DNA of 64,000 nucleotides from Glaucostegus cemiculus (Eukaryota). The stretch spans positions 2,542,001-2,606,000 of the forward strand of contig CDPCPM010000323.1 in NCBI GenBank assembly GCA_976551045.1. The letters are read 5' to 3'. Positions within the stretch are counted from its first letter, which is position 1. Every line of letters begins with the position of its first letter. Below, in pieces: positions 2,950-59,375 of this stretch. Under the pieces are notes generated by a model. The model made no database searches and had not been told where the DNA came from. It worked only from the letters and a program-made list of their open reading frames with translations. Both the position numbers and the translations under genes were made by a program.

Positions 2950-3130
2950 AGCCCCAGTTAGTGGAAAGAAGTGCAGATACTGGGTCTGTGGGGAGTGGGT
3001 AGGGAATGTGGGAACTGGGACCCCAGTAAGTGGAAAGGGAGCATGGAAAACATTGCACAGTGAGTGGAAAAAGATCACAGATATTAGGGGGGGGGGGGTG
3101 GGGTGGGCCCAGTGAGTGGAAAGTGAGAGT
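2950..3130. repeat. Degenerate G-rich tandem repeat
   Basis: Recurring cccagt(g/a/t)agtggaaa units and a poly-G run. Confidence 0.5.
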
Positions 3131-3839
3131 GGTAAACATCAACTGGTGACCCAGATGCCAAGCCATCAGGATTTCTGAATAGTTAGGAAGTGGATTATCA
3201 ACATTTCACTAATGTCCTCAATGATGTCGTCCAGCATTTTCCTTACAACAGAGTATAGTTATAGCTTCCTTCTTTCTTAAGAAGCAATACTACATTTGCT
3301 ACTTTCCAATTTGCTGGGTACTTGGCAACACTTTATCATTGAGCCTCATACTCTCTCTGGACTAATAAGAATCAGAGCTCACGGGAATGCCAACTTGTCA
3401 TGTTTTTTAATAGGATTTCAAAATTCCAATATTATTTTTGCACCCTAGCACAGATAGAATTGCTCATTCACTTCCTGTCAACAGAACTAATTGTGCAAAT
3501 GTCATGCCACTTTTTAAAAATGTCTTGGGATTTGGCCAATACCAGCAAGGCCGCAGAAAATGCACATCCCTCATTTGCCTGAGGGAATTAAGAGTCAATT
3601 ACTTAATGAGACGTGTGTCATACATAGGTTGGGTAGAGTGAAGGTGGCTGTTCCTTTTCCCTGAAATTTGATCTAGTGATTTTCATGGTCTGTGGCAATA
3701 ACCCACACACAGCCCATTTATTTTTTACTCAAATTCACTTAAACAACCTTCAGGGGTAAGAGCAGACCTCTTTGTCTCCGGGTTGCTGGAAAAACTACTG
3801 TAACAACTAGATTTCCATTGAAAATCCATCAACAGTCAA

Positions 3840-4036
3840 TGCTGAAATTCTGAAGTGAAAGCAGAAGCAGTTGGGCACACTCTGCAGGTCAGGCAGCATC
3901 TGTGGAAAGAGTAACAGTGTTAAAGTTTCAGGTCAAAATCCTTCATCCGGGTTAATGTTTCAGACAAGGGGTTTTTGACCAGAAACATTAACTCACCTTT
4001 TCCACAGATCTGCCTGACCTGCTGAGAGTTTTCAGC
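3840..4036. mobile_element. Fold-back Penelope pLTR element
   Basis: gcaggtcaggcagcatctgtggaaa on the left and its inverse tttccacagatctgcctgacctgc on the right. Confidence 0.7.
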
Positions 4037-6173
4037 TTGTTAATGTGCGCTACATTTCCATGCCTGTGTGACCAGTATTGCAGGTTCACAGAGATGGTAT
4101 AAGTCTTCCTGATTGCAAGTCCGTACAATGGCCTGATTTCCTGTCAGGCTGGCAGAGGGGATCCAGGGACTGATGAAGTGCAAGAAACCAAAAGAAAAAC
4201 CAAACAGAAACTACAGAGAGATATAAAATATAACCTAAGGACACATGAAAAACTGAATAGGCCCAATTTCCAGTCAGATCAAGAAACTCGGGGCAGGAAA
4301 TTCATGGAAAGACACTGGTATAACAAAAGGTTGGCATTTCCTTTTATGTTTCCTTGGGCTGCTTCCAGAGAACCCCTAATGTGCAAGCCCAGTGTTGCCA
4401 TGGATATGAGATAAAGATTTGGCTTCCTGGCCTGATTTGCCTGCCCTGGCTCTGGAGAGACGCCCAGAGAGAGGAATGCCTTTCAGAGCTGCCACATGCA
4501 TGAAGGATCTCCACAAAATGGATGTCTCTGCGTCCAGGCAGTAAAGTGGCCTCTTTCCTTGTACCATACAAATCCCTGCCATCCCCACCCAGCCTGTCTG
4601 GAACTAAGGAGGAGAGGGACAGTTCTGGTGGGAAGTCAGGAACATTGATCCTAGATGTCCAGGGAAGTAGGAAGATCAACATGCAGCAGCAAAGGACATT
4701 AACTGGAGAGAGGCAGAGCAAACGTAAACTTCCTCCCACACCTACTACTGTAAACACTGAAGTTGTGAACTACTTTGAATGTGCAGATGACTTTTCATGC
4801 TCAGATCCACCTGATTTGAAAAGCATTAGCGAAAGAGTTTCTGAAATTATTTTTCCATGGTGTTTTCTGGTCCTTCTGCACTTCCCAGCCTGAAGGTCCA
4901 TAAACCTCCCCTAAAGTCATTTGAAATTACTCAAGGATGGATTACAGAGGGATCCTAACCCTAATTTGCAATGGATAAAGAGACAGAATGCCTATTGTTA
5001 GCTTAATAGTCCTGTACCCACACAGCATTCGAATGAGATCAGATGCTCAGCAGAAAGATGATCGAGGGCATTTTCATTGCGTCCTGTAAAGATGCCTCCT
5101 ACTCGTCTGAGAAGGATATTCTTTGATACACCAACCCATTAAGTGTTAAATGCTTTATTAAATACTTAGTTTTGCTGGTACTTTAGATGCTGTGAATTCT
5201 GAAGAAGAGATTTACATCAGAGTGGCCAATGTAATACAAAGTACATGGAAACTAAACTCGAAAGCGAATGCATGTCAATGTGGTGTCATTATTGGAAGAG
5301 TTTTTTATTAGATCTGATATTGCTGCATCCAATTTGATCCCATTGCTTCAGTGATTGAGAATCTGTAGCCTGTCCTCTTTTACAGCTATAAATGTTCTCA
5401 TTTCTCATATTTATTTTTCATCTTAAACCAAAAATCAGAAGTTAATTTTCATTTTCTGTTCTTTCTGACAGTGTGATTATCAGCTTGTCAGCTCTGCATC
5501 TTACTGTAATGTGCATTGCTGCTCTGATTATACAAAATTACGAAGGTATTTAGAGTGTTAGACTGGAGAGCTCTGACTAGTACCAAGATCTTAAGGAGCT
5601 AAAGTCACAAAGATTTGTGCTGTCATATTTGTGTCGAGGAAGTTGTGCATTTAATGATGATTACAGCATTACATTGCAGAAATAGTTTAAATCCAGCTGA
5701 GAGTTATGTGACTGTTTGATCAGATATCACCATTCCATTACATGGACAGAGAAACCATGTAATTCATGGAACATTCTTTAAACAGAACTGCAGCACAGCA
5801 GTTTTACAAAAGCAAACGTTACAGGAGAGTCCTTCATATATATTAAAAAAAATAAAATGTTCCTGACTGCAATTTCAGGGGCTCAATGAAATGGAAAAAG
5901 CAGTAAGCTTAAGTTCAATTTTAGTTAAACTGCTGAATTATTTCAAAATTGCTGCAGGAAGGTAGGTACCTCCAGTTTATGCCCACAGGTTGTGATTCTA
6001 GGGTTGCAGATGGCACAGGTGGTGACCATTCAGCCTTTAACATCTATTCTATCTCTCTGCAAGAACCATCCATTTATGTCCATTTCAACCATCCATCCAT
6101 TTGTGTTCCAATGCCCAGTGATTAAGATTCTGCTAATACACCGCTTGTTCTTCCTGCAATAATCTTAAACTTG

Positions 6174-6335
6174 AAACACAAGAGACCTACAGATGCTGGA
6201 ACCTGGAGCAACAAACAATCTGCTAGAGGAACTCAATGGGTCAAGCAGCATCTGTGGAAGGAAAAGAATTGTCTGCGTTTAGGGTCAAAACCCTGCATCA
6301 GGACTGAGTTCCTCCAGCAGATTGTTTGTTGCTCT
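6174..6335. mobile_element. Fold-back Penelope pLTR element
   Basis: Inverted arms gagcaacaaacaatctgctagaggaactca / tgagttcctccagcagattgtttgttgctc; 15-bp TSD ataatcttaaacttg (6159-6173 / 6336-6350). Confidence 0.8.
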
Positions 6336-17518: not shown

Positions 17519-17832
17519 GTTCAGCTTCGGGAAGTAGCAAGCCTGCTTGGATTTCATCTGACCTGTAGGAACTGGTTCGGGGAAGTGACAGCGGTGTTTG
17601 AGTGTGGTATTCCTACTTGTCCTTCCCGCCCCAGTACCTTGCTGTGGATAACAAGTTGATTTCAAACCGTTTGAGGATTAGACTGGGGGCAGCCGCTGTC
17701 TTTCTGTAACCACCATGAACCTGGGCTGCCTGAGTTACCTGGTGCTGACAGCAAGTACTCTATACACCGCCGTGCTTAATCAGCCCACCAGCAGGGAGCA
17801 CGATCTGGTTCCAAGGATCGTCTTTACTCACA
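17519..17832 (+). other. Internal exon (5'UTR plus coding start)
   Basis: Branch-point-like ctcctaac at 17483-17490, pyrimidine tract, ttgcAG acceptor at 17517-17518, no upstream ATG in 17519-17714, GTAAGT donor at 17833. Confidence 0.75.
17715..17832 (+). CDS. First coding exon of a probable class-4 semaphorin (SEMA4-like): signal peptide plus start of the Sema region
   Basis: ATG at 17715 in strong Kozak context (aaccaccATG), in-frame upstream TAG at 17679-17681, translation MNLGCLSYLVLTASTLYTAVLNQPTSREHDLVPRIVFTH plus 1 nt, GTAAGT donor at 17833 (phase 1). A hydrophobic leader followed by a vPR-x-x-F motif and a phase-1 intron resembles SEMA4 N-termini. The paralog cannot be resolved. Confidence 0.7.
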
Positions 17833-17889
17833 GTAAGTGTGCCCGCTTGCTCCAATGAAAAGTGACATGTAACTATTTAATAGCAACTT

Positions 17890-18324: not shown

Positions 18325-19405
18325 CAAGGTCTCCTTTTTCAAGAAAGGCAACAGGGAAAACCCTGGTAATGATTGACCTGTGAGCCTGACATCAGTGGGA
18401 GGGAAGATACTGGAAAAAAAATCTGAGGGCAAGGATTAATGATCACTTGGAAAGACAGGGACTAATCAGTGACAGCCAACATGGCTTTGATCAGGACAAA
18501 TCCTGCCTGACCAATTTGATTGAATTCTTTGAAGAGGTAACAAAGTGTGTTGATGAGAGTAGGGTGGTAGATGCGATTTACGTGGACTTTAGTGAAGCCT
18601 TTGACAAGGCCCCACATAGGATGTGGGTTCAGAAGGTTAGGGCCCATGGGATCCAGGGCAACTTGGCAAACTGGATGCAAGATTGCAAAGATAATAGAAG
18701 ACAGAAGGTGATGGTAGAGGGTTGTTTTTCCCATTGGATGCCTGTGACTAGTGATGTCCCACAAGTAAGGGTATTGGGACCCTTGTTGTTTTCAATGTTC
18801 GTGAATGACTTGGGTGGGGAAGTAGGAGGCAAGATCGATAATATTGTTACTGACACAAAGATTAGCAGAGTTGCTGATAGTGTGGAAAGCAGTCTTAGGC
18901 TGCAGCGAGATATTGATGTGTAGGTGAAGTGGACTAAAAGATGCAGTTGGAGTTAAATTGAGACAAATGTGAGGTGATCCACTTTGGCAGCACTAATGAG
19001 GCTTAGACATACACCATGAATGGTAGGGTCTTGTGGAGAATTGATTAAACACAGGGAACTTGGAGTACAAGTCTGTAGATCCTTGAAGGTAGCAATACAG
19101 GTAGACAAAGTGGTTCGGAAGGAATATGGGATATTGGCCTTCATTAGTCAAGCATTGAATACAGAAGTAGGGAAGTTATGGTCCAACTTGGTCAGACCTC
19201 AGTTGGAGTACTGTGTGCAGTTCTGGTTAGCAAGGTATAGGAAGAATGTGATGGTGCTGGAGGGAGTGCAGAGGAGATTTATCAGGATGTTACCTGGGAT
19301 AGAGCATTTCAGTTATGAGGAGAGACTGAAAAAGCTAGTTTTTTTCTCCATGGAGTGGAGGAGATTAAGAGGCGACATGATTGAGGTGCATAAAATTATG
19401 AAGGG
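18325..19405 (+). mobile_element. CR1 LINE ORF2 (RT) pseudogene fragment
   Basis: ORFs 18447-18923 (SQHGF, CLTNLIEFFEEVT, IYVDFSEAFDK) and 19020 onward (LVRPQLEYCVQFW, RRLRGDMIEVHKIMKG), with stops and frameshifts. Confidence 0.92.
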
Positions 19406-19409
19406 TAGA

Positions 19410-19520
19410 TGCTTCAGTTTAATGTCTCATCTGACAAGACAGCACTCTGTCAGTACCACACTGGACTCTCAGGTTAGGTTTTGTACCCAAGCTCGTGTTT
19501 CATTTTGACCTCGAATACTT
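19410..19520 (-). mobile_element. Deu-domain SINE fragment
   Basis: gtttaatgtctcatctga...cagtaccacactgg, antisense to the family at 25425-25805. Confidence 0.5.
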
Positions 19521-21429: not shown

Positions 21430-24365
21430 TGCTAGAAGGTTGAAGATTATCCGAGGACTGCAAAATTACAAATGCTCCACCCTTGTTGAGAAATGGGTGT
21501 AGGGATGAACCCAGTAACCACAGATCAGTTAGCTTAACCTTGATAGTGGAGGAAGTTCTCAAAACAATTAATGGGGACAAAATTTGGAAATAGTGGACAT
21601 GAGTAATACATTCCTTTCCGGTAGAAAAGCACAAAAGAAAAAGCAACCCAAGCATGACCAGCACAAGTAGTGAAGGATGGCATTGGATCCAAAATAGAGT
21701 CATATACAGTTGCTGTAAAAGGTAGCAGACCTGAGGATTAGGAACATTTTAGAATTCAGCAAAAATGGATCAAGAAATCAATTAATAGAGTGTGTAAATA
21801 GACCTGCAGAGAATACAAAAACAGACTGTAAAATTTTCTTCACGCTTGTGAAAAGAGAATGGTTAGTGAAGACAAATGTGGGTCCCTTATGGTGGAAAAT
21901 GGGAGAATTTATAATGGGCAGTTAAGTAAATATTTTGATTCTGTCATCTTGGAGAAGAGCACAGGTAGCTTTCCAAGACTGCAGAAGTTTTATGAAAAGG
22001 AATTACTTTTAGTGAAAAAAGTGCTGGAGAAACTAATGGAACTGAAAGTTGATAAATCCCTAGGTCCTGATAATCTGCATTCCAGAGCACTAATAAAGGT
22101 CACCATGGAAATAATGGATGCATCGGTTGTCATCTTCCAATATTCTTTAGGGTGGGGAACAGTCCCTGGAGATTGGAGAGTGGTAAATGTAACTCCAATA
22201 TTTATGAAAAGGAGAGTGGGGGGTTGGGGGGAAGAAATCAGGGAACGACAAACTTGATATCAGAATCAGAATCAGAATCAGTTTTATTGTCACAACCATA
22301 TACATACATAGTATGCATAGGAGCGAGATACCGTCCTCCTCAGGTGCTCGTCCCATAAAAAATAACATAACAACCAACAGAGACACACATACACACTTGG
22401 CAGAATACACAGTACAAAACATTACACATTAGAAGCTATGGAGATTGAAATTAAATTATTACGCAGATTAAATTAAAAATGGCCAGTAAATAAATAAATA
22501 GTTCTTAAAGTGAACGGGCTGGTGTCGGGCATTTAAAGTGCTGGTGCATTTCTGTGCACCTAGCATCTCTTAGTGTTAACAAAGGAAGATGGAGGGATGA
22601 GAGAGTTTGCAGTTCTGATGGCTTGCAGAAAGAAGCTATTGTTCAGCCTGGTCGTTCTTGCCCTGATACATTTAAGCCTCCTCCCTGATGGCAAAACTGT
22701 GAAGAGGTGGTGGGAGGGGTGAGAAGGGTCGGCCATTATGCTTTTGGTCTTCCTCACACAACGGTCTTTGTATATGTCTGTGAGGGATGGAAGCAAGACA
22801 CCTATGATCCACTCCGCAGCTCTAACTATCTTCTGGAGGGACTTCCGCCCAGCAGCTGAGCAGCTTCCAAACCAAACAGTGATACATTGAGTTAGGATGC
22901 TCTCAATGGTCCCCCTGTAGAAGGATTTCATGAGGGCAAATCAGAAGCCCTGGATGACTGGGGAGGTTCGCTGTCTGCTACGCACCAGAGATGCAGCTTT
23001 CAGGGCGAGGGATGAGGAAGCTCTGAAGTCTGCAAGGAAGGATCTGTCTTGGGGTATTAAGAAGGCAAAACGACAATACGCAGAAAAGATAAATAATAAT
23101 TTCACCAACGACAGGGATGCGAGGCGTCTGTCGAAGGGAATCCAGGTCATCACTGACTACAAAGCTCCACCCCAGGTTTGTGATGGTGACTCATCACTTC
23201 CAGACCAGTTGAATGAATTTTATGCAAGGTTTGAGGCCATGAACCATACACCTGCCTCGAAAGCCCGGCCTTCGCCAGAAGAACAGGCTTTGAGACTCAC
23301 CCCAGCCAGTGTGGGGAAAGCCCTTTCACAGGTTAACCCTCGGAAGGCTGCGGGACCGGATAACATACCGGGGCGGATACTTAGGGACTGTGCGGACCAG
23401 CTTAAAGATGTACTGGCTGACATCTTCAACATCTCCCTACAGCAGGCTGTTGTCCCTAAGTGCCTAAAATCTGCCACCATCATACCTGTTCCTAAGAAGT
23501 CTCCTCCAAAGTGTCTGAATGACCACCGTCCTATAGCTCGAACACCGATTGTCATGAAATGCTTTGAAAGGCTAGTTATGAAGCACATTAGAGCCTCCCT
23601 CCCCCCATCCTTGGATCCTCATCAGTATGCTTATCGGGCAAACAAGTCCACCGATGATGCAGTCTCCTTTGCCATGCACTCTTCATATCAGTTGTAAGGA
23701 AATTGTTAGAATCTATTGTAAAGGACTTGGTAACAGGACACAGAAGATATCAATGGGACCAGACAAGTTAATATGGATTTATGAAAAGGGAAAACATGTT
23801 TGACACACCTACTGGAGATTTTTGAGGGTGTTGCTGGTAGGATAGATAAGGGACAACCAGTAGAGGTGATGTATTTAGATTTTCAGGAGCCTTTCATAAA
23901 GTCTCATATAAGGGTTTACTGGGCAAAAATTAAAGTGCTTGGTATTTGGGGATGGTATACTGACATGGATTGAAAACTGTTCGACAGGCAGGAAACGAAA
24001 TCAGAATTGATGTGATTTTCTCAGAGTGGCAGCTGGCGACTAGAGGGGCACCGAATGGCAGATGCTTCTCCTGGCTGGGGAGCGGAGGATCGAAAACCAG
24101 GGGTCACACTTTCAGCACAGGGCAGTAAACATTTAGAACTAGATGAGGAGAAATTTTTTTCACTCTTCCACCTTCTCTACCAAGGAAGGCTGTGGAAGCC
24201 CAGTCACTGAAGATATTTAAAAGGGGACAGATAGATTTCAAGACACAAAAGGCATCATGGAGTATGGGAAGTGAATGGGAATGTGGTATTGAGATAAAGG
24301 ATCAGCCATAATTATGTTGGATGGCAGAGTAGGTACACAGGGCTGAATGGCCTACTTCTGTTCCT
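21430..24365 (+). mobile_element. Fragmented CR1 LINE interrupted by a Rex1-clade insertion
   Basis: ORF 21859-22257 (KSLGPDNLHSR, VPGDWRVVNVTPIF); CR1 resumes at 23692 and ends in a CR1 3' tail gggctgaatggcctacttctgttcc. Confidence 0.85.
22264..23684 (-). mobile_element. Young Rex1/Babar-clade LINE, 5'-truncated with 5' inversion
   Basis: 22264-~22930 is the antisense 3' end with an (atcaga)n tail and ORF MKSFYRGTIESILT...RTTRLNNSFF. ~22930-23684 is a + strand ORF NQKPW...KAAGPDNIPGR...QYAYRANKSTDDA. TSD atatcag (22257-22263 / 23685-23691). Confidence 0.88.
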
Positions 24366-27396: not shown

Positions 27397-27598
27397 AAAA
27401 AAACAAGGTACTGGAGGAACTCAGCAGGTCTGGCAGCATCCGTGGAGAAACACAGTCAATGTTTCAGGTCAGGACCCTTCTTCTGGATCGAAACCACTGA
27501 CTGCTTTTCTCCACGTATGCTGCCTGATTTGCTGAGTTCCTCCAGCATCTTGCTGTTTTTTTCATCTAGATTCCAGCATCCGCAGTCCTTTGTTTCTC
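27397..27598. mobile_element. Fold-back pLTR element
   Basis: Inverted arms ctggaggaactcagca / tgctgagttcctccag; TSD aag(t/a)actattaatg (27383-27396 / 27599-27612). Confidence 0.8.
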
Positions 27599-36228: not shown

Positions 36229-36613
36229 GAGTGCTGCAAGAGACTGCAGATGTTGGAATCTGGACCAACAAACAACCTGTTGGAGGAACTCATTGGGTTG
36301 AGCAGCATCTGTAGGAGGAAAGGAATTGTCGATGTTTCAGGTGGAAACCTTGGATCTGTCTTGATACACCTCCATCCCCCATCAAGAAGCTCTTAAAGCC
36401 CCCTACTTCTTTCTGCAACAATGATCCAAACAGTTCCCCTCCACTAACATTCTCGTCCACCTGACTGAACTTGTTCTTTCCCTGAACAACTTCTCTTTTG
36501 ACTCCTCTGACAGTACTGATGCAGGGTTTCGATCTGAAACGTTGACAATTCCTTTCCTCCCACAGATGTTGCTCAAACTATTGAGTTCCTCCAGCAGATT
36601 GTTTGTTATTTAA
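36229..36613. mobile_element. Fold-back pLTR element enclosing a Penelope RT fragment
   Basis: Internal 36365-36508 translates YTSIPHQEALKAPYFFLQQ*SKQFPSTNILVHLTELVLSLNNFSFDSS; TSD tccattctga (36219-36228 / 36614-36623). Confidence 0.85.
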
Positions 36614-42725: not shown

Positions 42726-45377
42726 AAAAGGAAACTGGCAATATCATTAATAATTTGTCAAAATAAAAGCACTTTCTTTGAACATCTATCTTGACGTCAG
42801 GCACTTTAGTCCTGTCACTGAAAACAAAGATGATTAAAAACCTCTTCACCCACAGCAAGCTTGTCCCAGCTTAACTTGATGAATCTGTGATACCTCAGCA
42901 CGCTGGGTCCAACAGTTGCCTAAGGGAATAACCAAAGTGCTCAATTTTAACATGAAACATCATGTGATTTGAATCTGACAGGCAACTTGTTGAATGTAAA
43001 AGACTGATGTTTAAATTTACATGGTGCTGTTCACTGTTTCAGGTACATACCAGACTGTCCTCTAAAATTAACGGCACTGTTTTTAACTGCACAGTCCTGT
43101 CAGAAACTGGACTGGGTCCAAGCTAGGAAACAGTGAAAATGGGACCAAGAGCTTTCCCTGTCAGATCCTTCCTATATGTTCCAGTTTTTTAGGCTGCTCT
43201 TTGGCACAGACAACCAAGTCACCTCAGGAGTAAATGCAGAGATCAGTGCTTGTAACTTAATGAGTTGTCATCTATTTTATATTTCAAGATCTCGTTGAGT
43301 TTAAGTTTTACCAAGAAAACAGGGTGACTTCTTGTTTCAACTTGTGTTTTCTAATATTGTTTGGGTAAGTTTGGGAGTTGAAGCCTCATTCTGACTTGGT
43401 GTTATTCTGCTCCTTCAGCTGTGAGGAGAATCCCATAGAGGTTCCTATTAGAAAATCAGAAGCTGGAAAAATCTCACACAGAATTGGTAGAGTGAAATTA
43501 TTTCCATTGCTTGGGGAAGTTAGGAAACATTGCATTGTACTTACAGAGGAATGGAAATACTGAGCTCTTCCATCAAAAAAGTTGATATCAATTAATTATT
43601 ATGCTTAAATCTGAGACTAATGCTTTCCATTCATCATAGGTGTTAAGGTAATGCTGCACAACCTTCTTATGGAGAAGACCAAGATTTGTGGAAGTCCCTC
43701 AAACTTCCAGTGGGAGAATGCAAACTCCCTATGGTTTTGCAGTAGACATGGGGTTGGGTTAACTGGTTGCCAAAACATTTCTTGAGCTTGCCCTTCACAG
43801 CAAGATGACACTGCACTGCACGGGGTCATGTCAATCGGGAATCAGCTTCAGGGACCAACCTGACACCAGATCCACTCCACTAAGTGTGGACCTAGTTGTT
43901 AGGAAAGTGTTGATCATGGGTGACTGGACAGAACTCATTGAAATGGACTGTGTGTTCTGCATTTCTGTAGTAAGTGATAAAAGACAAGGCTAGAATAGGG
44001 AGATGTGTTGCTAATCACCCATGATCTCATTAAGTGGTGGACCGGGCATGAGGGGTAAATACCCCCTTTTCCCAAATCTTCTATCCTTTGCTTCTAGCAC
44101 CTCAGTGAGATATTTGAACAGATGAAAATACTTCCATGTATTTAGCTGGGACTAAATTGTGAGATTGGTCTGAAATATGAACATCAAAGTAAGGCAGAAA
44201 AGGTAAAAGAAAGCAAAAACCTCCCACAGAATCAGGCTGAATATATCACACATCTTTCTTACTCTTTCATTTGAATCCACTGCCAAGATTAACACACAGT
44301 GTTGATCAGTACTGCCACCACATGCTGGGAGGCTATTAAACTGTTTATATAATATCCTGAGTTATGTAGTGACAAACTAGATGGATAGTTATTGAGAAAA
44401 TTTTGCCAACATTATAAAACAATGTGGGATACAGGGTTATTAAAACTATTTTTTAAAGGCACCCTTGAAGTTCATTGTGAGTATCAATTGCCTACTACTT
44501 GTGCTTGTTGGAACATGCAGCAACTCTCATCATGAGATCACACTGGTGTTCTCGATTATCTATCCAAACCTTTGAACATTGAATTCTAAAATATTCCACT
44601 ATATTAACAAGCCATTTGGTCTACCTGTGGCATTTTTCCCCTGCAAGTCTCATCCTACTCAACTGCTTGTCCCCAATCCTATAATATTCCTTTTTAAGCA
44701 ACAGTACAGTTTCCTTGTAAAGTATATGGATTTTGCCATACAACTTTATGACAGATTCCCAAAATGCATTCCCTGAGTATGTAACCAGAAAATGTTGTCT
44801 CTTCCTAATATGCTGAGCAGCAGTCATTTTTTTTCTTCTATTTCTTGGAAAAGATGTTTGCTTTCTGTGCATCTAGAAGGTCATTCCACTCTCACAAAAC
44901 ATATGGCCTTTTGATTTTGCTCTCCATATGATTGCACTTAAAAGGTAAGTGGGCCTGCCAGGAAGGCATTGAAAACAACCCTCAAGTGAAGCTTTAACTG
45001 TAATGGGCCTGCAGTTAGGAAAGAATGACCTGATAACAACGAGCAGAGTACCAGATTCCATTAATTGCTCACTTATTTGCTTTTCAACGTTGTTCTACTT
45101 AAACCAGGTTGAGACAGACTGTGGATGCAATGGACGTGATTGGGTGTGATACACTGATGTTCTAAGGCGTGAGCTATACATCACTAAGTCTTTTAATCTT
45201 TTCACCACACAGGGATTCTGAAAGATATGTTGCATATTTCCAGCATTTCTCTACTAATGAAAGGCCTGTACTTCGGTCTGGTTCTGTGATTAATTATTTT
45301 TAGATATCCACACATGTTTTGAAAGTGACTGCTGATTTCTTCAAGATAAGTGAAGCTGAAGGTGTGTTTAAGAAGTT

Positions 45378-45664
45378 GAGACACAAGAGGCTGCAGATGC
45401 TGGAAATCCGGAGCATCACACAAAATGCTGGAGGAACTCAGCGGGTCAGGCAGCATCTATGGAGGGAAATGAAGAGTTGACATTTCCCTCCATAGATGGT
45501 GGAAGCCATCCATCAGCTCTTGCTCCACCCCTTCCCCCCACCTTTTTAAACTGCCTATCTCCCCACTTTCTTTCCAGTCCTGATGAAGGGTCTTGGCCCG
45601 AAATATCGACTATCCATTTCCCTCCATTGATGCTGCCTGACCCGCTGAGTTCCTCCAGCGTTTA
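45378..45664. mobile_element. Young fold-back Penelope pLTR element
   Basis: Near-perfect inverted arms; 16-bp TSD gtgtgtttaagaagtt (45362-45377 / 45665-45680). Confidence 0.88.
45576..45611 (+). ncRNA. Minimal type I hammerhead ribozyme motif (Penelope type)
   Basis: AGUC-CUGAUGA-A-GGGU(CUUG)GCCC-GAAA-UAUC^GACU: stem I AGUC/GACU, intact core boxes, stem II, palindromic AUAU in place of a stem III hairpin, AUC cleavage triplet. Confidence 0.7.
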
Positions 45665-45942
45665 GTGTGTTTAAGAAGTTAACAGGAATAGTTGGTACTC
45701 TTGAGCTGAGTCTGTCTCTTCACTCCATCGCTGTCCTTGAACAGAAAGATTAGCTTGGGGGAGATCTGAAAGCCTTTGTTTAGACGATAAAATATTGCAA
45801 AAGCTGCAATTTCTGCAGAACTGTGATTTAGGTAGTGCTGTAAATATGTGCCAAAATCTACCTATTAGTTGGGCCAACCATTAACCAGCCAAAGTCATTA
45901 ACATGAACTGGATAATCTAAAGTGACTGCTTGTAAGATAGGC

Positions 45943-46233
45943 TTAGATAAGATATCTTTATTAGTCACGTGTACATCAAAACACAAAGTGAAATGCATCT
46001 TTGCCTAGAGTGTTCTGGGGGCAGCCCGCAACGCTTCCGGTGCCAAATTAGCACGCCCACAACTTCCTAACCCGTACGTCTTTGGAACATGGGAGGAAAC
46101 CAGAGCACCCAGAGGAAACCCACGCAGACACTGGGAGAACGTACAAACTCCTTACAGACAGTGGCTGGATTTGAACCTGGGTCACTGGCATTGTAATAGC
46201 ATTACACTAACCACTACACTACTGTGCCTGCCC
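45943..46233 (-). mobile_element. Young V-SINE, tail A
   Basis: Antisense, near full length. Confidence 0.9.
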
Positions 46234-46299
46234 TAATTTGTGGATTGGTATATCTTAGTTCTATACCCTTGTTAAAAGAACTATTATTGAGTCAAAGAG

Positions 46300-59039: not shown

Positions 59040-59266
59040 GAGAGACAGGAGACTGCAGATGCTGGAATCTGGAGCAACAAACAATCTGCTGGAGGAACTC
59101 AGTGGGTCGAGCAGCATCTGTGTAGGGAAAGGAATTGTTGATGTGTCAGGTCAAAACCCAGCACCAGTCCTGATCCACGGTTTTGACCTGAAACATTGAC
59201 AGTTCCTTCCCCCGCGCCCCCCCCACAGATGCTGCTCAACCTGCTGAGTTCCTCCAGCAGATTGTC
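59040..59266. mobile_element. Fold-back pLTR element
   Basis: Inverted arms; TSD tgggctga (59030-59037 / 59269-59276). Confidence 0.82.
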
Positions 59267-59375
59267 AGTGGGCTGATTGTTAGTGATTGTTTCTGTGCTG
59301 TGTCGCTCTTTGAGTCCACAAAATTAAAATGTTATAACTTGACTTACCTTTTCATGAACGACAACAGCCCTGTTG

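Follow-up and report, generated by a model that had tools for sequence, protein, structure and literature searches.

The 287-nt insertion at 45378-45664 of the window (the whole 64,000-nt stretch of DNA that was analyzed) is, as we conclude with considerable confidence, best explained as a decayed, non-coding stub of a Penelope-like element (PLE), in which two truncated pLTR pieces stand head to head between duplications and the hammerhead motif carried by one of them probably does not cut. Most likely, it is a new instance of a known element type and is inert. As a single copy it has little weight, being one among an estimated 300,000 whole motifs in the genome, most of them broken; the statistics of its family, in which arm ends reach stem I of the ribozyme and show no excess at the cut site, weigh more.

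Hammerhead motif and anatomy of the insertion

A preliminary description, made from the DNA letters, had placed a hammerhead ribozyme at 45576-45611 on the plus strand, and the letters, stems, boxes, NUH triplet and AUAU palindrome were all found as claimed. The segment reads AGTC-CTGATGA-A-GGGTCTTGGCCC-GAAA-TATC-GACT and contains the CUGANGA and GAAA boxes with an NUH triplet (AUC). The fifth stem I pair of the family is a C-A mismatch in this copy. The motif comprises the following parts, all on the plus strand:

45576..45611, plus: minimal type I hammerhead motif (sequence, folding and descriptor match)
45576-45579/45608-45611, plus: stem I, 4 bp
45580-45586, plus: CUGAUGA box (sequence)
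45587, plus: extra A (sequence)
45588-45599, plus: stem II, 4 bp (three G-C plus U-G) around CUUG
45600-45603, plus: GAAA box (sequence)
45603-45606, plus: helix III AUAU, a palindrome without a loop
45607, plus: C17, the cut-site base

A strict descriptor, which demanded 4-bp stems I and II, both boxes, NUH and a self-pairing helix III, matched the window once and the 1.28-Mb genome sample four times, and gave no match in 25.6 Mb of 2-mer shuffles; the motif is therefore far above chance. The covariance-model check fared otherwise: the Rfam scan returned no hammerhead family up to E 10 and six weak miRNA/snoRNA matches instead, and the Rfam models probably require a closed helix III. The motif has a helix I of 4-5 bp, G10.1-C11.1 in helix II and an extra base after position 9, all traits of the minimal hammerheads (min-HHRs) of metazoan PLE pLTRs. 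In the available sections of Cervera and De la Pena (2014, PMC4209133), these are likewise of type I, lack loop 3, are palindromic at 15.2-16.2, and have the extra base between 9 and 10.1, G10.1-C11.1 and a 4-5-bp helix I; they are also mostly single motifs from truncated elements, with some opposite-strand pairs 100-700 bp apart. Helix II has 4 bp here versus 7-8 bp in the Schistosoma min-HHRs of that text, and the window copy further differs in its AUAU and in an antisense arm over its 3' half. The two supplementary files of that paper that we searched contain no shark, skate or Callorhinchus entry, and a cursory search of the open literature turned up no publication about PLE hammerheads of sharks or rays, or about 5' ends located at stem I.

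The insertion is composed as follows:

45362..45377, no strand: left target-site duplication, a 16-nt exact direct repeat
45378..45486, minus: arm A, inverted pLTR 3' piece (alignment to the subfamily consensus)
45378..45416, minus: 'tail' extension, present in arm A only (bimodal arm 3' ends; available parts of PMC3846280 and PMC11167929)
45481..45501, plus: piece B, a snap-back copy of 21 nt, the complement of 45451-45471 in arm A
45502..45513, no strand: 12-nt junction filler outside both arm alignments
45514..45664, plus: arm C, sense piece of the pLTR that spans roughly -65 to +90 and lacks the tail
45665..45680, no strand: right target-site duplication, a 16-nt exact copy of the left one

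Arm A extends from GAAA (position +20 from C3) to the tail, which it includes; it covers the ribozyme's 3' half in arm C, and its own helix III reads AUGU. Piece B, which overlaps arm A by 6 nt, carries the variant of arm A and not that of arm C. The pLTR match of arm C extends 6-7 nt into the right duplication, and because these first nucleotides match both, the length of the target-site duplication is 9-16 nt. The short fold-back noticed earlier was confirmed, the arms 45417-45486 and 45600-45669 (70 nt) being 90% complementary (z -12.2). No ORF was found in the 287-nt element.

The sense position in a semaphorin intron, also claimed in the preliminary description, proved correct. The element lies on the sense strand in intron 1 of a SEMA4B-like gene, both flanking exons of which are on the plus strand:

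17715..17832, plus: SEMA4B-like coding exon 1 (signal peptide), placed by homologues, with a phase-1 donor at 17833
from about 71218 (window coordinate), plus: SEMA4B-like exon 2, 7.2 kb beyond the window end, placed by homologues

This first coding intron is ~53 kb long and ends at about 71217. Semaphorin motif searches of the 64-kb window gave no exon, and homologues were required. For a downstream Sema exon, identity was 90% to a skate protein named semaphorin-4B and 71% to a protein of a chimaera, values that suggest a cartilaginous fish as the host. The first exon is not the CpG-rich stretch found 17 kb upstream. From the gene structure, the element would be transcribed; RNA reads on the exon-2 region were dominated by repeats, with an exon-2 depth below 1.5, and weigh neither for nor against transcription. 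The same intron holds 26 pLTR arms of the family (15 minus, 11 plus), and at least seven further fold-back stubs, several with 8-15-nt flanking repeats, lie in the window (6186-6306, 27402-27585, 36240-36606, 59049-59271 and others). It also contains decayed LINE-type RT fragments at 18390-19508 and 22560-23697, recognized by eye in translations, and a SINE-like repeat at 46020-46235 with 12,446 exact 30-mer matches, which served as a control for CpG decay.

The Penelope family and the origin of its stubs

The genome was sampled at 128 ten-kb loci (1.28 Mb) set at fixed round positions of large contigs. A profile search found 281 pLTR arms in them, which scales to about 626,000 genome-wide, and of the 136 whole motifs in this sample only 8 passed a relaxed descriptor. 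Assignment to a Penelope pLTR, as originally proposed, was supported by coding remnants: in 11 of the 12 long loci around RT matches (query locus included), the pLTR lay 3' of RT and GIY-YIG endonuclease fragments in the same orientation. Translations of these loci contained PLE-type RT motifs, DKG among them, plus a GIY-YIG-like domain, which Pfam scored at E=0.003, under its cut-off; decayed RT pieces had no Pfam match. A Cys linker (C-x4-C-x2-C or a decayed form of it) was present between RT and EN in 7 of the 12 loci. The family thereby appears to point to the Neptune/Nematis type, and the term 'Neptune-like' is based on this linker and on occurrence in vertebrates. In the accessible text of Craig et al. 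(bioRxiv 2021.04.23.441226), DKG is named as a motif of PLE RT and a Zn-finger linker between RT and EN marks Neptune/Nematis. Two loci considered as 5' pLTRs of full elements, L222 and L228, turned out to be separate insertions. Elsewhere, L227 contains a 3.2-kb fold-back (3006-6264) whose arms, 1.6 kb each, contain sequence of the endonuclease and the RT, and L109 (2-2038, plus) a 679-aa open frame which by eye resembles the pol of LTR retrotransposons (RNase H, integrase).

Arms of the family stood head to head in 82 pairs and tail to tail in 9 (398 matches, unselected and pattern-selected loci mixed), and flanking repeats of at least 9 nt accompanied 17/82 fold-backs versus 11/807 mismatched controls. 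In the unselected and neighbouring loci, 46 same-subfamily pairs contained 92 of 300 arms. These pairs were long plus short in 31 cases, short-short in 5, long-long in 2 and unclassed in 8, i.e. 31 of 38 classifiable pairs combined a long with a short arm (p=1e-4). Arm 3' ends were bimodal, with maxima about 30-35 nt apart, and in all four subfamilies arms were slightly more similar within than between pairs, a comparison that bears on origin from the same RNA. The 5' ends were concentrated as well: 56 of 286 lay between -8 and 0 relative to the first core base versus 18/477 in a uniform simulation, examples in the window being 6308, 26345, 59164 and 59172. Ends at the cleavage site, which could have been a fossil of cutting, were not in excess (8/286 vs 15/477 simulated, p=0.83), and this idea was rejected. 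That the 5' ends gather where stem I begins, rather than at the cut site, suggests uncut templates.

In all four subfamily consensuses, the 5' strand of stem I lies within YYAGTY, which resembles the initiator consensus and also a splice acceptor. A splice acceptor as the cause of the pile-up is disfavoured, since no common upstream exon was seen and 42/286 ends lie at -10 to -3, with all or part of the AG kept; we favour a transcription start together with an uncut template. More specifically, and with somewhat more doubt than belief, we suggest that the element RNA begins at the first base of stem I, which would double as initiator, and serves in uncut form as the template for copying from both ends of the DNA. 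Tentative as it is, we hold this reading likelier than the one in which the palindrome is selected and the ribozyme still cuts (see below). The arm-end data predict that the RNA has its capped 5' end on the A in stem I.

Both the arm 5' ends and the long-plus-short pairing agree with one in vitro study, that of PAc, a Poseidon element of Anolis (Frangieh et al. 2024, PMC11167929). According to its available portions, reverse transcription of PAc starts at two internal sites, which lie some 100-130 nt behind the ribozyme, its RNA template is uncut, and its protein cut and extended both strands. Two start sites and two-strand extension fit the long-plus-short pairing and the bimodal 3' ends observed here, and the features of PAc also fit the absence of 5' ends at the cut site. 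Unlike PAc, the present family, which is known from sequence, carries a Cys linker that separates RT from EN, as in the Neptune/Nematis type. Endonuclease-bearing PLE insertions are described, in the parts of Arkhipova et al. (2013, PMC3846280) and Craig et al. (2021) that were available, as having an inverted 5'-truncated pLTR, an optional 30-40-nt tail and an 8-10-bp target-site duplication. The window element shares with such units (PMC3846280) the head-to-head inverted pLTRs, the tail on one arm and the flanking duplication, whereas it differs from them in its missing ORF, its three pieces with a snap-back junction and a duplication of up to 16 nt.

In the mechanism that we propose, the RT-endonuclease of the element would cut both DNA strands with a 9-16-nt stagger, and each DNA end would prime cDNA on pLTR RNA at one of the two internal start sites, just one arm receiving a tail. 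Templated repair would then join these two short cDNAs and give piece B. Alternatively, the inverted pLTRs may originate from self-priming on an antisense template, as proposed in the accessible text of Arkhipova et al. (PMC3846280). Mobility of the 287-nt fold-back in its own right, as a MITE-, SINE- or retrozyme-like unit that is copied in one piece, would suit its compact, hairpin-shaped, duplication-flanked form and the 92 of 300 arms found in fold-backs, but we regard it as extremely improbable: junctions vary between copies, the A-B-C junction with piece B occurred in 0 of the 29 other best matches, and tandem units are absent.

Subfamilies, covariation and the change of helix III

Clustering on sequence outside the motif gave four subfamilies, all of which keep GAAA, U16.1, and ACGU or CpG-decay products of ACGU, and which differ at the free positions N7 and H17. 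Covariation in stems I and II across copies, whose absence the preliminary description would have held against the ribozyme, was found at one pair of each. Stem I pair 2.1-1.1 (47 C-G, 39 U-A, 23 C-A and 11 U-G) covaried with p=1e-6, which reflects a single between-subfamily change at a pair whose position 1.1 is also subject to CpG decay, and 10.1-11.1, G-C in the family, was A-U in 29/69 subfamily-1 copies. No other pair covaried across family copies. Two compensatory events, not many, would be compatible with selection of the fold in active elements. As stem I covaries across subfamilies, the ribozyme presumably mattered to the parent elements, in which it probably worked as a dimer. Non-CpG core positions were less variable than downstream sequence in three of the four subfamilies; in the subfamily of the window copy, core variation was 0.117 vs 0.110 downstream. 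The window copy retains every core base, as few copies do. Core position 9 was C in 33/39 copies of subfamily 4 (e.g. window 6186-6308 and 36504-36608), and core position 4 was A in 14/32 copies of subfamily 3, to which the window copy belongs; both are natural core variants that deserve assay.

The consensus of helix III in the family is ACGU, as had been expected, and AUAU is absent from every subfamily consensus. Among 189 unselected copies, the central dinucleotide was CG in 29, TG in 50, CA in 68, TA in 18 and other in 24, so that variants that break the palindrome outnumber AUAU by 118 to 18. Fourteen of the 18 TA copies belong to the oldest subfamily; in subfamilies 2-4, TA occurred in 4/95 copies at helix III vs 2/95 at a control CpG, and G12, the general base (according to the accessible part of PMC6155905), was A in 38/95. 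Among the strict matches (863), the first 100 by hand count were CG 37, TG 24, CA 23, TA 5 and other 11, and the exact TA count in all 863 was 30, of which 12 represent one locus within an amplified unit, leaving 19 independent copies. The neighbouring C11.1-G12 CpG, in the first 100 of 870, was CG 37, TG 31, CA 26, TA 1 and other 5. In these strict, young-looking copies TA was thus more frequent at helix III (19/~852) than at the neighbouring CpG (4/870, p=0.001), and the SINE ACGT site showed TA in 46/12,446, a difference that is 3-fold once age is roughly corrected for. This amounts to a 3-6-fold excess of AUAU in young-looking copies; over the first megabase, TA stood at 7/116 vs 3/101 and 3/107 at SINE ACGT sites (p=0.4). 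Local mutation bias or inter-arm repair could account for the excess.

Two routes to AUAU had been put forward, double CpG decay and compensation. The former fits most tests, whereas the latter fits one, the residual TA excess. Most likely, AUAU in the window copy arose by CpG decay after insertion, because palindrome-breaking variants predominate, G12 decays freely, the AUAU copies form no clade and arm A reads AUGU; ACGU would have become AUAU through two transitions at a methylated CpG. The other route would imply that AUAU is a compensatory variant which became fixed in an active source and was passed on to the window copy. Compensation did occur elsewhere in the family, as in stem I (C-G to U-A) and at 10.1-11.1, and the TA excess in strict copies would suit such a source; nevertheless, we judge it very improbable. 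The 19 independent AUAU copies show no clade (nearest-neighbour test p=0.58; smallest distance 0.068), no subfamily consensus has AUAU, and the partner arms of AUAU copies read CA, CG, TG and TG (TA 0/4), with TG in arm A here, although the partner-arm test is weaker if the two arms stem from two RNA molecules. On these two tests, of nearest neighbours and of partner arms, an AUAU source lineage was rejected. One AUAU pLTR with a broken stem I recurs in L031, L032, L187-189, L191, L194, L197, L198, L200, L202 and L203; it lies between AG and GT microsatellites beside a LINE ORF1-like frame, in a unit of at least 2.8 kb that is amplified at 98-99% identity on many contigs and has older relatives, 75-90% alike, in L033-L041.

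Predicted folding and the question of cleavage

Folding was assessed with nearest-neighbour estimates, which contain no tertiary energy. In the predicted fold of the whole element, 45600-45611 pairs with arm A, and stems I and II have probabilities of 0.00 and 0.01, respectively, the ribozyme fold lying 6.2 kcal/mol above the predicted state. Just after the motif is made, and as long as transcription has not passed about 45620, the gap amounts to 1.8 kcal/mol, and it reaches 6.2 within 40 nt. Even without arm A, forcing the ribozyme fold costs 4-5 kcal/mol, and in the 36-mer alone the core misfolds, with GAUG paired to UAUC. Piece B was considered as a stabiliser of the ribozyme fold and rejected at equilibrium (gap 6.2 with B vs 4.5 without). 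As to dimers, helix III is 3.3 kcal/mol weaker with AUAU/AUAU (+1.6) than with ACGU/ACGU (-1.7), and AUAU against an ACGU partner gives a mismatched helix at +2.0 kcal/mol. The dimer was estimated at -13.0 for the window copy vs -19.3 for an intact copy. The active dimer, however, lay 6.0 above the folded monomers in the window copy and 5.5 above them in the intact one; these values are nearly equal, and the energy model therefore does not separate the two copies there. Masking is common in the family, the other arm covering the cut site in 21/35 fold-backs that contain the entire motif.

The preliminary description implied that the ribozyme works within the pre-mRNA, and this is not supported. 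Cleavage by the window copy is improbable, because arm A would mask GAAA, helix III and the cut site, AUAU is weaker and a partner is scarce: in pre-mRNA, arm A would pair over these three parts, and a second AUAU-bearing RNA would still be needed for the dimer. In the sections of PMC4209133 available, single min-HHRs showed no cleavage and dimers little, and the Anolis PLE ribozyme cleaved only with its protein (available part of PMC11167929).

It could be argued that the intronic ribozyme is still competent, i.e. that it folds briefly during transcription, dimerises with another RNA that carries AUAU and cleaves SEMA4B intron 1 slowly, whether or not the host gains from it. Its core bases and palindrome are all intact, it lies in sense orientation in the intron, the early folding gap is small, and conserved intronic hammerheads are known in amniotes (PMC6155905, in part). 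On the other hand, that gap soon widens, the isolated 36-mer misfolds, the copy is the sole strict match in the window, so that there is no cis partner there, and ACGU partners would be mismatched. Furthermore, no full open RT frame was present among 150 scored of the 13,990 RT candidates (longest 502 aa). We therefore consider continued competence very unlikely. As little credence is given to the wider proposal that the helix III palindrome is selected as RNA even among dispersed copies, that the AUAU excess is the trace of a step in Penelope copying which depends on dimers, and that the window copy is still able to cleave SEMA4B intron 1 during a brief co-transcriptional interval before the antisense arm locks it. 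If the window copy did cut, the same could hold for thousands of like stubs in introns, with effects on the pre-mRNAs of their cartilaginous fish hosts.

The stub also differs from other intronic and mobile hammerheads. Like the amniote intronic ones (RECK and others, as described in the available text of PMC6155905), the motif is of type I, lies in an intron and is PLE-related, whereas this one locus gave no hint of conservation or domestication, and the predicted monomer fold is not stable. With non-LTR retrozymes (bioRxiv 10.64898/2026.07.22.740005, accessible part) it shares the type I hammerhead and the relation to PLEs; retrozymes, however, consist of tandem units with a whole type I hammerhead, while here there is one motif with inverted arms and no tandem. 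Two other loci contain paired motifs. In L111 (about 4620-4880; G000:C21:6650627 and 6650850), two same-strand hammerhead pLTR pieces lie 223 nt apart, one with ACGU and the other with ACAU, in a cis-dimer arrangement with one mismatch. In L110 (about 4700-5250; G000:C19:28125759 and 28126111), a fold-back carries an ACGU motif on each strand, and it is a better test candidate for the intact motif than the window copy.
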